The notes below the pieces were generated by a model. That model was not told the DNA's origin. It did not search any database and worked only from the letters and a program-made list of their open reading frames with translations. 64,000 nucleotides of DNA. Origin: Candidatus Parcubacteria bacterium. Lineage in GTDB: Bacteria > Patescibacteriota > Patescibacteriia > UBA1558 > GWA2-36-10. Shown piece by piece: positions 53,502 to 58,704 of this stretch (positions within the stretch are counted from its first letter, which is position 1; each line of letters opens with the position of its first letter). Where the stretch lies: positions 24,394 to 88,393 of the forward strand of contig JABHSK010000001.1 of NCBI GenBank assembly GCA_018669975.1, written 5' to 3'. A program made the translations under genes and the position numbers.

Positions 53502-54497
53502 CTACTTGCCACCCTTGCCGTTGAGGTTCATGAGCCAACCGGACCCGTCGGGCATGATATTGGCCGGCAAGGAGCCGTTCCACTTCTCAGCCGCGATCTT
53601 CTGGGCCTCGGCCTGGATCTTCTGGATATCCAGCTCACGGACCATGATGGCCGCGTCCTGTGCCCGAGCAAACTCCTCGGCCGCTTTACGTGAAGCAGTA
53701 GCCGTGGCTACGGTCTGCTTGTTGAGCTCATCCTGTGCCAGCTTATTCTGAGCTGCAGTCTGGACGCTGAGTTCAGCCAGGAACCGGTTGTTGATACCGG
53801 TCTGGATCTCCTCGTCCTCGTAGATCAGCCCCTCGGCGTAACCAAGGTTGTCGATAGTAATACCGGTCTCCTTGAAATGCTCACGAGTAGCGGCGTAGAC
53901 GCGATCAAAGATCTCGGCTTTGGCACCGCGACCGTCAACCAACTCCAGGGAGCCGAACTCCCGAGAGAGAATCGAGGTGACGTAACCACGCACGTTCTCA
54001 TCGACCACAGCCGACAAAGGCTTACCGGCGTACCAGTACAAGAAAGTCGCCGCGTCGTCCTCACGAACGAAGGAGGTGATATTGACGCCGATGGCGAAAC
54101 CGATGGACTCCTTGGACTCGACATGGATGGCTTCGTTGGCATTCGAGGTGCCGCTGGCGCTATCCTGCGTCCATTCACGAGTAACGGGTTTGCGATCAAC
54201 CTTGATCACGCGCACCGTCGGAATCCATTCAAAATTCCAACTGCGACGACCATTCTTCCTCTTACGCAGAGGAATAGTGACTCGCTTGGCCGCGACCTTG
54301 GCGTCCTCCAGGAAATCCACGGACATGAACTTGCCCTGGGTATCCATGTTGGCGCCTTCCATCGGCACCACGAAAGCAGTTTCGTTGGTGTCGATCTCTT
54401 CGACCACTTCGACTTCGGCCGGACCCCTGCAGCCAGTAAAGGCAAACATGGCGATCAGGCCAACGACGATCAGAGACAGGTACTTGAAATTCTTCAT
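53502..54497 (-). CDS. SPFH/band-7-like lipoprotein (high GC)
   Basis: Lipobox FTGC, band-7-like core (ESKESIGF..GITIDNLG), coiled coil, KWNGSLP end; GAGGAGG SD. Confidence 0.75.
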   Translation of the reverse strand: MKNFKYLSLIVVGLIAMFAFTGCRGPAEVEVVEEIDTNETAFVVPMEGANMDTQGKFMSVDFLEDAKVAAKRVTIPLRKRKNGRRSWNFEWIPTVRVIKVDRKPVTREWTQDSASGTSNANEAIHVESKESIGFAIGVNITSFVREDDAATFLYWYAGKPLSAVVDENVRGYVTSILSREFGSLELVDGRGAKAEIFDRVYAATREHFKETGITIDNLGYAEGLIYEDEEIQTGINNRFLAELSVQTAAQNKLAQDELNKQTVATATASRKAAEEFARAQDAAIMVRELDIQKIQAEAQKIAAEKWNGSLPANIMPDGSGWLMNLNGKGGK

Positions 54498-54587
54498 TCT
54501 GTTTCCTCCTCAAGAGGTTCTGAAAGGTTTGAAACGGTTTTGAAACACGATATTCGTGAACAAATATACTAGCAGAGAAAAATAGAA

Positions 54588-54887
54588 CTACTCGTTACTA
54601 TCCGGGGCACTGTTGTACCTACCCAACTTGACCACATACGGAATCCAGGTCAAACCCAGCAGAATAAATCCTGCCCAGTTGATCATGCGTGGGATGGCAT
54701 GCAGTGCGACAGCGCGGCCGGCGACATAGTCGACATCACTGTTGTTGAGCTGCTTGACCGCAACTCCGGCCTCGATGGGACCCTGCGAAGCATTGTAGAC
54801 CTGAATGGTCACAATCCACAGAATCACAAAGATAATTGTGAAAATCATCCTGGCCTTGAAATTGGGCCTACCGATCATCTTACTCAT
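54588..54887 (-). CDS. Two-TM partner protein upstream of SPFH gene
   Basis: AAGGAGG SD before ATG 54887; elevated GC like neighbour. Confidence 0.75.
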   Translation of the reverse strand: MSKMIGRPNFKARMIFTIIFVILWIVTIQVYNASQGPIEAGVAVKQLNNSDVDYVAGRAVALHAIPRMINWAGFILLGLTWIPYVVKLGRYNSAPDSNE

Positions 54888-55102
54888 GTTTTGCCTCCTT
54901 AATGGCAAATGGTGATTGATTGGGAAACAACGATTTTACCGAATCTATTTTAAATCCTTGCGTTCAAGGCAGTAAAAAAATATACACGATAATAACAGAC
55001 TACATTAGCATAATACCTTGATTTTGTCAAGTATTAAGCTAAAAACCTTAAAAAAATAGGTAAATAAAAAGGACTCCAATTTGGAGCCCCTAATCTGATA
55101 GT

Positions 55103-55741
55103 TTAGCTATCAAGACTAAAGCTTTTCTCTGGCATACCAGGACAAGTGCCTCGCGGACCGAGAGTAGCCATAAAAACAAGGTTGCTCTGCCAGCTAATAT
55201 CACCCAATTCGGAAGCTATTTCCATAGCCATGGGAAGCAAATCAGCCTCTGGCAACACTGACAAAGTGATATGTGGTACAAACGTATCCATGGTCAATGG
55301 ATTACCCCATTTGGCCAAGTTTTTACGCCGAGCAGCACCTATATCAACTTCGCCTGTTAGACAGCCGGAATGTAAGCCAGTGATAAAATCCTGACGAAGT
55401 TCATTGATATCTTTGACCAGTTGGCGATGAATTCCCAACAACGCATCAGTCATATTTACATTCCAAAAAATAGCATTACCAGGATACTCACTGACACCAC
55501 TAAGGGTTAATTCGAGAGGCTTTTTACCCCAAAATGTTCTTTCCATGACAGAATCAACCGCAACTATATTTTCTACTGGAAAAGCAAATTGATGAATAGT
55601 AATGTGCGGAATAGCACTTTCCTCACTGAGGACTAAATCACTACCATGGGCAGCAATTTTTCTACTAACATCAATGGCTATTTGCCTGATTTCTTCAGGC
55701 GGAATAATCACTATGTTGCAGCTTAAAACTCTGGGAAACAT
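55103..55741 (-). CDS. 2H phosphoesterase (LigT/2'-5' RNA ligase superfamily)
   Basis: Two HxT motifs PHITI and PHITL; own promoter and SD. Confidence 0.8.
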   Translation of the reverse strand: MFPRVLSCNIVIIPPEEIRQIAIDVSRKIAAHGSDLVLSEESAIPHITIHQFAFPVENIVAVDSVMERTFWGKKPLELTLSGVSEYPGNAIFWNVNMTDALLGIHRQLVKDINELRQDFITGLHSGCLTGEVDIGAARRKNLAKWGNPLTMDTFVPHITLSVLPEADLLPMAMEIASELGDISWQSNLVFMATLGPRGTCPGMPEKSFSLDS

Positions 55742-55855: not shown

Positions 55856-55880
55856 AAAATGTTTACAATTGAATATCTAA

Positions 55881-55952
55881 CAATGAAGCAATGAACGACT
55901 GTCTATATTTGGACGCTTGGATAGTCGGGAGCTAGTAGCGTAACCGGCATTG
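55881..55952 (+). promoter_or_regulatory. c-di-GMP-II-like riboswitch aptamer 1
   Basis: P1 caatg/cattg; kink-turn TGAA..GGAG; stem cgactgtct/ggatagtcg; pseudoknot ACGC/GCGT; GAGCTAGTAGCGTAACCGG core. Confidence 0.85.
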
Positions 55953-55981
55953 GCAATAAATTTAATTTGCTTATTTTGTCG

Positions 55982-56007
55982 GAGACGCCTACCTTAGGTG
56001 TTTTTTT
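55982..56007 (+). terminator. Expression-platform terminator 1
   Basis: gagacgccta-cct-taggtgtttt + T-run. Confidence 0.75.
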
Positions 56008-56036
56008 AGTATAAGTACCTTATAAAATAAGTAAAA

Positions 56037-56108
56037 TGATGAGGTGTTGAACCATAGTCTATATTTGGACGCTTGGATTATGGGGAGCTAGTAGCGTAAC
56101 CGGCATTA
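56037..56108 (+). promoter_or_regulatory. c-di-GMP-II-like riboswitch aptamer 2
   Basis: Same core with compensatory stem ccatagtct/ggattatgg; P1 tgatg/catta. Confidence 0.85.
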
Positions 56109-56128
56109 AGCTGGTTTTAGGTACAAAC

Positions 56129-56158
56129 AAAACACCTCATTTTTCGAAGGTGTTTTTT
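56129..56158 (+). terminator. Expression-platform terminator 2
   Basis: aaaacacct...aggtgtttt + TT; 5' arm complementary to aptamer-2 5' strand. Confidence 0.7.
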
Positions 56159-56184: not shown

Positions 56185-56625
56185 TTGGCTAGAATCGCTG
56201 TTTTTGATACGACCTATACTTCTATACGAACCATCTATTATGCCCTAGAGGGTGAAGGACATCAAGTAGTAACTAATGTTTTCCCAGAAAAAGTTTATGG
56301 GAAATTAGTTATGAAAATGGTAACTGACCCCCTTAGTTTGGTGACTAAAATTTTGACCCCCAGACTGGTTGATGGACAAGTCGTAAGACCTATCCCTGAT
56401 GTTTTCATCATAGATTTTCTTAATCTAGATGGTGAAAAAATAGCCAGCATACTCAAGCAAATACATAGTACTAGATCTGTACCAGTAATTGCCTTGAGTC
56501 ATAAAGGGAAAAATATAGATCGTCAAAAGTTACTTCAACTCTACGGCACTCACTATATTCCTAAACCATTTAATGTGTGGAATGTGGTTGATCACGTGGA
56601 AACTTTCCTAGGTGTCACTTGCTAG
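56185..56625 (+). CDS. Stand-alone atypical receiver (REC) domain protein
   Basis: RIAVFD, PDVFIID, LDG, VPVIALS, YIPKPF; GGAGGT SD before TTG. Confidence 0.8.
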   Translation: MARIAVFDTTYTSIRTIYYALEGEGHQVVTNVFPEKVYGKLVMKMVTDPLSLVTKILTPRLVDGQVVRPIPDVFIIDFLNLDGEKIASILKQIHSTRSVPVIALSHKGKNIDRQKLLQLYGTHYIPKPFNVWNVVDHVETFLGVTC

Positions 56626-56667
56626 TGGCTGGGGGGGGGAACTAAAACCTAGGAAAGGAGGCACATA

Positions 56668-56733
56668 ATGGAAATTATGACGATCGTCATGGGTCTGTCC
56701 CTGATCGATCTCTTTTGGTGGCTGAGGAAATAA
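56668..56733 (+). CDS. 21-aa hydrophobic peptide 1 (MEIMTIVMGLSLIDLFWWLRK)
   Basis: AAGGAGG SD 6 nt before ATG; paralog at 56934 with synonymous codon differences. Confidence 0.75.
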   Translation: MEIMTIVMGLSLIDLFWWLRK

Positions 56734-56834
56734 TCTCAGCAAATCGTTAATGATGTCTAGAATAGAAGTTGAAACTATCAATATCTGAGTAGCATCATTC
56801 GGATGCTACCAATCGCCTGTCTATCGACAGGCCG

Positions 56835-56879
56835 AGGGACTCGTCACTGCATAATTCCCCCCAGTGCATACGAGTCCCT
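56835..56879 (+). repeat. Conserved terminal hairpin, unit 1
   Basis: agggactcgt-cactg-(C-rich loop)-cagtg-cat-acgagtccct. Confidence 0.8.
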
Positions 56880-56933
56880 TTCGATATTTACTGGAGGATG
56901 CTAATCGCTTATATTGAAAGTGAGGTGAAAACT

Positions 56934-56999
56934 ATGGCTTTCGAGGTTATTCTCATCGCTATTGGCGTTGCGGATATCTTCTGGTGGCTGCGTAAGTAG
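56934..56999 (+). CDS. 21-aa hydrophobic peptide 2 (MAFEVILIAIGVADIFWWLRK)
   Basis: GAGGTG SD; same length and C-terminus as peptide 1. Confidence 0.75.
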   Translation: MAFEVILIAIGVADIFWWLRK

Positions 57000-57067
57000 C
57001 TACCAAGATAGCAACTAGTATCTTCAATTAATATTTATACAGATAGTGCCGCCCGGGTACTATTGTC

Positions 57068-57117
57068 AGAGACTCGTCACTGCCCATTTCCTCCAGTGCA
57101 TACGGGTCTCTTTTTTT
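57068..57117 (+). terminator. Conserved terminal hairpin/terminator, unit 2
   Basis: agagactcgt-cactg-(loop)-cagtg-cat-acgggtctct + T-run. Confidence 0.8.
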
Positions 57118-57156
57118 AAAACAAAAAATCGGATATTACTACCCGATTTTTATAAA

Positions 57157-58065: not shown

Positions 58066-58704
58066 ATGAGTCCTGAGAGGATATCAGTAATAATTCAACA
58101 AAAGATTGAAGCCTATGATCCCAGTGGAAATCTTGACCACACTGCTCGCTTGATTCTTGCCCTAATGTCTCTTAGACACTCCCGAACTAAATTACATGTC
58201 GAACGTGTAGCCCTGATGGCTGAAGAAGTGGCCTCTGATATGGGTAAAGATGCTCGGCAAGCTTTTTTTAGCGGACTACTGCATGACATCGGCAAGCTAG
58301 TCTTGCCCTACCACCTATTTGCTGATCAATCAATCACTGATGATGAATTTTCTGAAATTACCAGCCACGCTGCAGCCGGACACAAAGTCCTAGAACCATT
58401 CCATCTCTATACCGCGCTAGTAGCTGGCATTCATCATCGTGCTCAAGACCGTGGCTACGGTCTAACACTAACAGACTTCCCAGAAGACATGCCTTTGTCG
58501 CAGGTCAAGAAAGTTCTCAATATTGCCGTCATAGTCGGCGTCTGTGATTTTATTGATGCCTGGCAAAACCGTGGTGACACCCTCCGTGATGGACGTAAAA
58601 AAACAGACCTTGATTTACGCAGTCTGCTTCTGGAAAAATATCCCGATGATAGCCAAGTTGTTGACTTGGCCCTAGTAGCTGCGGACAAAGTCCGTACCAT
58701 CTGA
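58066..58704 (+). CDS. HD-domain phosphohydrolase, HD-GYP-like with degenerate GYP motif
   Basis: HVERVA, LLHDIGK, HAAAG, HHRAQDRGYG, VCDFIDAW; AAGGAGG SD. Confidence 0.8.
   Translation: MSPERISVIIQQKIEAYDPSGNLDHTARLILALMSLRHSRTKLHVERVALMAEEVASDMGKDARQAFFSGLLHDIGKLVLPYHLFADQSITDDEFSEITSHAAAGHKVLEPFHLYTALVAGIHHRAQDRGYGLTLTDFPEDMPLSQVKKVLNIAVIVGVCDFIDAWQNRGDTLRDGRKKTDLDLRSLLLEKYPDDSQVVDLALVAADKVRTI

Follow-up and report, generated by a model that had tools for sequence, protein, structure and literature searches.

At the end of a riboswitch-led module in a 64,000-nucleotide stretch of Candidatus Parcubacteria DNA (the window), two tandem structured units each carry a 21-codon ORF, and it is of interest what peptides so small do and in which cell they act. 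The first-pass annotation of this DNA described both units as carrying a strong Shine-Dalgarno sequence (SD), a hairpin over the stop codon and a shared terminal hairpin, and this description held: both ORFs and their SDs were confirmed (Table 1), and the two kinds of hairpin, the terminal ones being 42-43 nt long, are present in both units. The units fold far below the energy of dinucleotide-shuffled sequences (z = -4.2 for unit 1 and -5.4 for unit 2). No contig joint fell inside either unit in four DNA runs, and one of these (X3) recovered both units on a single contig with no differences. The genome to which the window belongs (G000, 96% complete) has no further ORFs of such kind. No sense or antisense sigma-70 site scoring at least 10/12 lies within the two units, so that the riboswitch-receiver transcript probably has them as its tail. 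The terminal hairpin of unit 2 is likely the terminator for the whole module, and for that of unit 1, which has no U-tract, stabilising the RNA or blocking its processing is a more probable role than termination.

Table 1. Features of the riboswitch-receiver-peptide module in the window.
Feature	Position	Strand	Basis
c-di-GMP-II riboswitch aptamer 1	55875..55958	+	Rfam RF01786, 67.3 bits
Terminator-like hairpin after aptamer 1	55984..56007	+	sequence and fold
c-di-GMP-II riboswitch aptamer 2	56031..56114	+	Rfam RF01786, 62.4 bits
Terminator-like hairpin after aptamer 2	56130..56158	+	sequence and fold
Single-domain receiver (REC-like) gene	56185..56625	+	PF00072, E 2.3e-5, below cut-off
Unit 1 5' element, partner 56855-56865	56628..56638	+	own-vs-crossed pairing
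Unit 1 Shine-Dalgarno	56654..56661	+	sequence, SD duplex -11.9 kcal/mol
Peptide gene 1, 21 aa, MEIMTIVMGLSLIDLFWWLRK, C-terminus DLFWWLRK	56668..56733	+	ORF, pattern
Hairpin over stop codon 1	56721..56740	+	fold
Unit 1 terminal hairpin, C-rich loop, without U-tract	56836..56878	+	
Unit 2 5' element, partner 57089-57097	56890..56898	+	own-vs-crossed pairing
Unit 2 Shine-Dalgarno	56922..56928	+	sequence, SD duplex -14.0 kcal/mol
Peptide gene 2, 21 aa, MAFEVILIAIGVADIFWWLRK, C-terminus DIFWWLRK	56934..56999	+	ORF, pattern
Hairpin over stop codon 2	56982..57005	+	fold
Unit 2 terminal hairpin with U-tract	57068..57117	+	sequence, fold
Terminator of convergent DUF2807 gene	57124..57151	-	fold, domain match

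The upstream c-di-GMP riboswitch elements originally proposed for these units were confirmed by Rfam, in which both c-di-GMP-II aptamers clear the RF01786 gathering score of 53.5. The genome harbours four such riboswitches, the second tandem pair being on contig C7, and c-di-GMP-II aptamers precede the receiver gene in 14 of the 15 module loci scanned. In ligand-free folds of the window, the 5' strands of the aptamers disrupt the terminators behind them (for instance, the left arm of terminator 2 pairs with the 5' strand of aptamer 2), from which both riboswitches are predicted to be OFF switches. A search of the 39 genomes of the window's family, 29 of which are at least 90% complete, turned up no GGDEF cyclase.

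Within this family, the receiver is the first gene of the module, and its orthologues were detected at E < 1e-14 in 13 of the 39 genomes. A strict peptide pattern matched seven of the 86 genomes of the order, every one in the window's family, and reading behind receiver genes added G420, G430 and G401 as well as a D-to-Y variant in G426, so that the two approaches place the peptide in 11 of the 39 family genomes. A peptide-profile search of Patescibacteria, which the first-pass annotation had suggested, recovered family members only, with no match in 300 other genomes of the phylum Patescibacteriota. Among the 13 genomes with a close receiver orthologue, nine have the peptide behind the receiver and four have lost it. 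Homologues that keep the terminal hairpin and have lost the ORF, which that annotation had named as speaking against its own interpretation, do occur, namely in these four genomes (G406, G404, G434 and G469). In the G426 variant (L403), where Tyr replaces the otherwise invariant Asp, both the SD and the helix between 5' element and loop are weaker, and this copy is possibly decaying. Database records of the window's type are labelled Komeilibacteria, Parcubacteria or Patescibacteria group; a 3.8-kb contig labelled Roizmanbacteria (L132), which carries a peptide unit, a lipoprotein and a receiver gene of the window's family, is either a misbin or a transfer.

In the window's genome, about 108 of the 898 ORFs have a GC3 of at least 0.4, and a strong SD accompanies about 70% of these genes as against 7% of the low-GC3 genes. 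The idea, taken from this two-class SD pattern, that the peptide mRNA is meant for host ribosomes was unsupported: the anti-SD is kept in all four 16S ends available for the window's family (4/4), and the cells' own ribosomes can therefore read the peptide mRNAs.

The co-varying 5'-3' pairing claimed for the two units was borne out over 13 Patescibacteria units. A G-rich 5' element about 34-49 nt upstream of the start codon forms a helix of 8-12 bp, the partner of which comprises the loop and the initial 3'-arm bases of the terminal hairpin; the helix and the terminal stem are thus in competition, or else joined in a pseudoknot. Paired with their own loops, the 5' elements of units 1 and 2 reach -21.5 and -17.3 kcal/mol, respectively, against -15.7 and -11.3 kcal/mol for the crossed combinations. 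Over the 13 units the own and crossed means are -19.7 and -15.8 kcal/mol, none of 20,000 permutations was as good, and the test with three near-redundant units dropped (n = 10) gave p = 0.0003. Changes on both sides were counted in 4/10 helix pairs and 7/9 stem pairs of the 13-unit alignment, in which some rows are misplaced and kin units are not independent; two units outside that alignment, L406 and the second unit of L405, both pair poorly. The helix is dominant in 12 of the 13 units if the RNA stops just past the loop; nested folds of the full-length RNA lack it, again in 12 of the 13, and it would therefore belong to a co-transcriptional or 3'-trimmed state, or be a pseudoknot. In the nested folds the SD is predicted to be partly to mostly paired (0-0.5 unpaired) in both states, and its accessibility is much alike with and without the helix. 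Several terminal hairpins lack a U-tract, with further genes beyond them. We take the element to be a putative end-closing stabiliser of processed units, the alternative being that it controls read-through.

Comparison of the RNA element with Rfam, another check suggested at the outset, returned no described family at any E-value of note, and the exact terminal-hairpin pattern was found in none of 400 other genomes of the phylum and in no viral contig. The pseudoknot was also considered as an HDV-like ribozyme, a reading given up since relatives do not keep the would-be catalytic strand. Nor does 5'-3' closure appear to be a general trait of the GC-rich SD-bearing genes of the window's genome (5% own versus 2% crossed), none of which closes as strongly as the peptide units.

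The peptides belong to a family of 199 distinct SD-led members, collected before the group centred on genome G637 (see below) joined. Its core, D-[LIF]-[FWL]-W-W-[LIM]-[RK], lies 0-4 codons from the stop, the N-terminus being free, and lengths range from 13 to 43 aa, with the shortest members at 13-15 aa. A hydrophobic stretch followed by Asp, two Trp and a basic end was recovered in 77-100% of the members per group; the C-terminal residue may be R, K, D or H, most often a basic one. Codon use covers all six Arg codons and many of those for Leu, which counts in favour of selection at the protein level. The invariance of Trp is partly a matter of how members were selected, as both Trp are fixed by the search patterns, and one W-to-F substitution was seen among ORFs recovered by position in genomes that the profile had missed. 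Signal-peptide-like N-regions were recognised by eye in L234, L248, P0032, P0049 and P0050; most members are without a cleavable leader, and a few N-regions are hydrophilic. Searches of Pfam, NCBIfam, PHROGs, Rfam and PDB gave no significant match to the peptides, and the Atlas comparison gave none above 0.80. The strings FWWLRK, DLFWWL, DIFWWL, DLLWWLR and FWWLR are absent from the main texts of the literature searched, and smORF catalogues may list members without comment. We found no literature linking Patescibacteria, c-di-GMP and riboswitch. The peptide family is real and undescribed, and the RNA closure is specific to the Patescibacteria copies. Thus, with no match to a library family and the riboswitch upstream in nearly every locus scanned, the initial suggestion stands that a riboswitch unit ends here in an undescribed micropeptide system of membrane type.

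The genomic context of the peptide outside Patescibacteria points to a putative partner. The pattern D-[LI]-[FW]-W-W-L-R-K-stop gave 83 matches in GTDB genomes, and in 65 of them a gene for a phosphatase of PDZ-multiTM-GAF-SpoIIE architecture ends at most 700 nt upstream. The other 18 comprise eight Patescibacteria-type units, six probable chance matches, two loci too short upstream, one with the phosphatase 1.7 kb away and one with a frame-broken phosphatase. Many of the matching records are labelled Krumholzibacteriia or Krumholzibacteriota, and those labelled Fibrobacteraceae probably belong with the same group, as they have this synteny too. In 151 Krumholzibacteriota genomes, the peptide profile matches 80, once each except in one genome, and the sensor half of the phosphatase matches 139. 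When 20 of the weaker profile matches were fetched, all were true motif ORFs (20/20): 14 lie directly behind the phosphatase, one is in a prophage, and for five no phosphatase was located upstream, although in two of these five (G496 and G635) the peptide gene does adjoin the phosphatase, in convergent orientation. Among 20 genomes missed by the profile, 18 have an SD-led core ORF of 15-22 aa located 65-176 nt behind the phosphatase; the two exceptions are a contig end and a genome in which no phosphatase end and no peptide could be located (G612).

The same arrangement recurs in the G637-centred group, where the motif plus stop was found in 44 of 61 genomes (43 in frame; 4 control matches) and 20 of 25 loci have the phosphatase upstream. 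Since the named homologues of the group's phosphatase come from Ca. Eisenbacteria (40-45% identity), this group is probably Eisenbacteria. Across Krumholzibacteriota and the G637 group, the sensor half of the phosphatase shares 24-76% identity. The TM part of two phosphatase paralogues matches HisKA_7TM, and fusions of the PDZ-multiTM sensor module with kinases and cyclases occur in Acidobacteriota and others. Many Krumholzibacteriota genomes possess a second (PDZ)-TM-GAF-SpoIIE paralogue, which is followed by a TPR gene and not by a peptide gene (L430-L432).

Most Krumholzibacteriota peptide loci end in a terminator opposite a convergent gene. Upstream, promoter-like motifs of a sigma54-like type were counted in 49/105 and of a sigma28-like type in 56/105, versus 6 and 0.4 in shuffles, with patterns drawn by eye from the same sequences and then counted. 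Genome-wide, four of five genomes show no enrichment of the sigma28-like pattern, and the sigma54-like form occurs in three genomes without flagellin. Both motifs are absent upstream of the Patescibacteria copies. No dedicated exporter or protease was found near the peptide gene.

Phages carry the peptide as well. IMG/VR yielded 18 matches to the strict pattern and 61 to the pattern without the stop; with this latter pattern, which imposed no stop codon, a stop falls within 0-1 codons of the motif in 39 of 55 unique viral matches, as against about 9% by chance. The operons around the phage copies are unrelated; terminase genes are often close by, and a GC hairpin often follows 12-20 nt past the stop. 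A lambda-like prophage in a Krumholzibacteriota bin contributes a second peptide copy to that bin. Metagenomes gave at least 121 motif matches, and no match was found in cultured phages and plasmids. Tandem arrays of diverged peptide-gene copies were observed in a phage (four copies, L240) and on a metagenome contig (three copies, L270). The 5'-loop pairing is not above background in the Krumholzibacteriota or phage copies and, judged from these sequences, is confined to Patescibacteria.

We put at roughly an even chance the reading that the peptide is a ligand or regulator of the PDZ-multiTM-GAF-SpoIIE phosphatase, borrowed by Patescibacteria to act on a host. A role in trans is suggested by its fixed position behind one sensor, its apparent own promoter and terminator, the free N-terminus and the invariant C-terminal core. 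The window's genome, the only one searched for a SpoIIE domain, contains none, and phages infect owners of the sensor; carriers of these two kinds are best read as mimics. The likely role of the peptides in a tiny cell without the sensor is that of a signal borrowed for use on a host, and not that of a self-poisoning toxin. Control by the c-di-GMP of a host is suggested because the riboswitches sense a signal that the family apparently cannot make. The mechanism would comprise four steps, in falling order of confidence: (i) the peptide acts in trans on the adjoining phosphatase, either binding within the membrane or, after export, at the PDZ/TM sensor by way of a C-terminal fragment, and tunes the partner switch, probably in feedback with the peptide's own sigma54- or sigma28-type promoter; (ii) phages and these Patescibacteria carry the peptide as a mimic of the host signal; (iii) the riboswitches read host-derived c-di-GMP, the peptide being produced while c-di-GMP is low, as would follow from their predicted OFF function; and (iv) the 5'-loop helix closes the processed unit into a protected mRNA or, alternatively, permits co-transcriptional read-through of unit 1, either of which would raise the dose.

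Several observations weigh on this borrowed-ligand reading. No independent link of the window's family to Krumholzibacteriota was found in four shared-gene tests: the REC protein has generic matches only in Krumholzibacteriota (best E 7e-10), the neighbouring SPFH protein occurs in none of the 151 Krumholzibacteriota genomes, the downstream lipoprotein in none of five Krumholzibacteriota genomes, and FlgD_ig proteins are absent from the window's genome. A species-specific pheromone would not usually have a core so nearly invariant in two groups, and the forms of 13-15 aa have no obvious export route; both were counted against it. The variable and usually basic C-terminal residue is unlike that of typical PDZ ligands. 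The lack of a cleavable leader in most members, the D-to-Y variant of G426 and the convergent orientation in G496 and G635 also count against this reading.

It is attractive to speculate further that the peptide is a phylum-wide signal with a PDZ-7TM-GAF-PP2C receptor in Krumholzibacteriota and Eisenbacteria, hijacked by phages and by epibionts that sense the c-di-GMP of their host through OFF riboswitches. We hold this fuller version tentatively and regard it as rather doubtful. The epibiont would be unable to make c-di-GMP, its OFF riboswitches would sense that of the host, and until the host settles the epibiont would release the mimic peptide, made from mRNA units stabilised by end closure. 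If true, this would identify the hosts of the Komeilibacteria-type cells and provide the first peptide-ligand PP2C receptor. In any case, the peptide gene is near-universal in two uncultured groups, where gene callers usually miss or mis-start it, and since kinases and cyclases carry the orphan sensor module too, the peptide is a ligand candidate of wide use. Its presence in phages and in a Patescibacteria family with no GGDEF cyclase found, and with no sensor in the window's genome, makes host identity and host manipulation testable with a short synthetic peptide.

Among systems already described, streptococcal SHP/Rgg, ComS-XIP/ComR, AgrD/AgrC and ComC/ComD are short peptide pheromone pairs. 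SHP/ComS-type precursors resemble the present family in their size (~15-25 aa), in their variable hydrophobic N-terminal part and in a conserved C-terminal segment starting from Asp, which in ComS also contains a Trp pair; as in such pairs, the gene stands beside a putative receptor and appears to have its own promoter. The peptide gene is fixed beside the putative receptor gene, as in a pheromone pair, in the donor groups and not in Patescibacteria. The putative receptor here, however, is a membrane PP2C (SpoIIE) phosphatase with PDZ in uncultured phyla, the core is near-invariant over two groups, and the neighbourhood offers neither exporter nor protease. MgrB and SafA are small-protein regulators of PhoQ, and share with our family a tiny hydrophobic protein, an apparent alternative-sigma promoter and a predicted feedback on a membrane signalling enzyme. 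Unlike in those systems, an RsbU-type phosphatase would be the target, some members have only 13-15 aa, and copies reside in phages and Patescibacteria. By analogy, the peptide may work most like SHP/ComS precursors or MgrB-type regulators, with membership in neither established.

As for the putative target, SiaA of Pseudomonas and chlamydial RsbU, both membrane PP2C partner-switch sensors, likewise have a membrane SpoIIE-domain phosphatase; a SiaA match was weak (E 2.5e-9, far below the cut-off). The present enzyme stands apart in combining PDZ with a multi-TM sensor and in having its own peptide gene, and SiaA/RsbU-type enzymes are not known to have a peptide ligand. The SiaA-type system of Pseudomonas controls c-di-GMP, the signal sensed by the riboswitches in the window. 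Orphan quorum-sensing synthases of CPR/DPANN have been proposed to serve host manipulation, in a survey covering known signal families only (PMC7567580). The likeness to our case is a signal without a receptor and a proposed manipulation of the host; the window's putative signal, by contrast, is a ribosomal peptide of no described family.

Three alternatives have to be weighed against the borrowed-ligand reading. It is unlikely, in our judgement, that the peptide instead regulates some other conserved membrane protein of the producing cell (a protease, the translocon or a c-di-GMP enzyme), its link to the phosphatase being mere shared regulation. The hydrophobic stretch, Asp, Trp pair and basic end do resemble small membrane regulators, the searches for a host link with REC, SPFH, FlgD_ig and the lipoprotein were negative, and the family's own ribosomes are able to read the mRNAs. 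Nevertheless, the same phosphatase adjoins the peptide across two groups in which its sensor half has diverged to as little as 24% identity, and the peptide is patchy in Patescibacteria, being absent from most family genomes and from the other genomes of the phylum.

The motif might alternatively act in cis, by stalling the ribosome at or near the stop and thereby controlling the next hairpin; this seems to us quite improbable. The position of the motif, always 0-4 codons before the stop and behind a free N-terminus, would suit an arrest peptide, as would its tandem Trp codons, which trp leader peptides also contain. The phage copies lie inside operons, often with the GC hairpin past the stop mentioned above, and the stop-spanning hairpin of the Patescibacteria copies is more stable than expected (-12.0 versus -8.2 kcal/mol in shuffled sequences). 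In Krumholzibacteriota, on the other hand, that hairpin is barely above shuffle (-6.65 versus -6.26 kcal/mol), and most loci have nothing on the same strand downstream. A same-strand downstream gene was seen just in the phage copies and a few others, and no same-strand target gene for an attenuator follows in the window, where the module ends at 57117. The varying distance to the stop and the signal-peptide-like and arrayed forms also argue against action in cis.

Least probable of all is a type I toxin-antitoxin-like system, in which a membrane-damaging peptide is silenced by 5'-3' folding and an antisense RNA: the 21-mers are hydrophobic, aromatic and basic, the units are tandem-duplicated, the 5'-3' helix shows covariation, the SD is predicted to be mostly paired, the folds of 3'-shortened and full-length RNA differ as in hok and aapA, the mRNAs of which change fold on 3' processing, and phages carry copies, but a sequence scan found an antisense sigma-70 site of at least 10/12 in none of 17 units, Rfam gave no antitoxin match, the helix neither covers nor switches the SD in predicted nested folds, two other groups lacking the RNA element have the gene fixed as a single copy, members of 13-15 aa are too short for a membrane span, and the ORF is freely lost while the hairpin persists. 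The type-I-toxin-like interpretation of the first-pass annotation is thus poorly supported, and its remark that no convincing antisense promoter was visible is upheld; at 9/12, three antisense sites occur on the minus strand within unit 1 and none in unit 2. 5'-3' pairing is described for the type I toxin mRNAs of hok/Sok, aapA/IsoA, Ldr/Rdl and Fst/RNAII, and the likeness extends to a short hydrophobic ORF, a strong SD, a terminal stem-loop and tandem repeats (T1TAdb, PMC8594479). The peptide units differ from these mRNAs in having no antisense signal, no sequence match in Pfam, NCBIfam, PHROGs or PDB and a pairing that, in nested folds, does not appear to sequester the SD, and the family mostly exists as a fixed single-copy gene without the RNA element.

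Three neighbours of the module in the window may be mentioned. A GC-rich SPFH/band-7-like protein and a small membrane protein are encoded at 53502-54908 on the minus strand, the former having homologues in other Patescibacteria and Sumerlaeota. A gene for a 2H phosphoesterase (2'-5' RNA ligase superfamily) at 55103-55741, also on the minus strand, points away from the riboswitch module. At 58066-58704, some 1 kb from that module, lies a gene for an HD-domain protein that is weakly c-di-GMP phosphodiesterase-like (HD_5; NosR-type E 4e-9).
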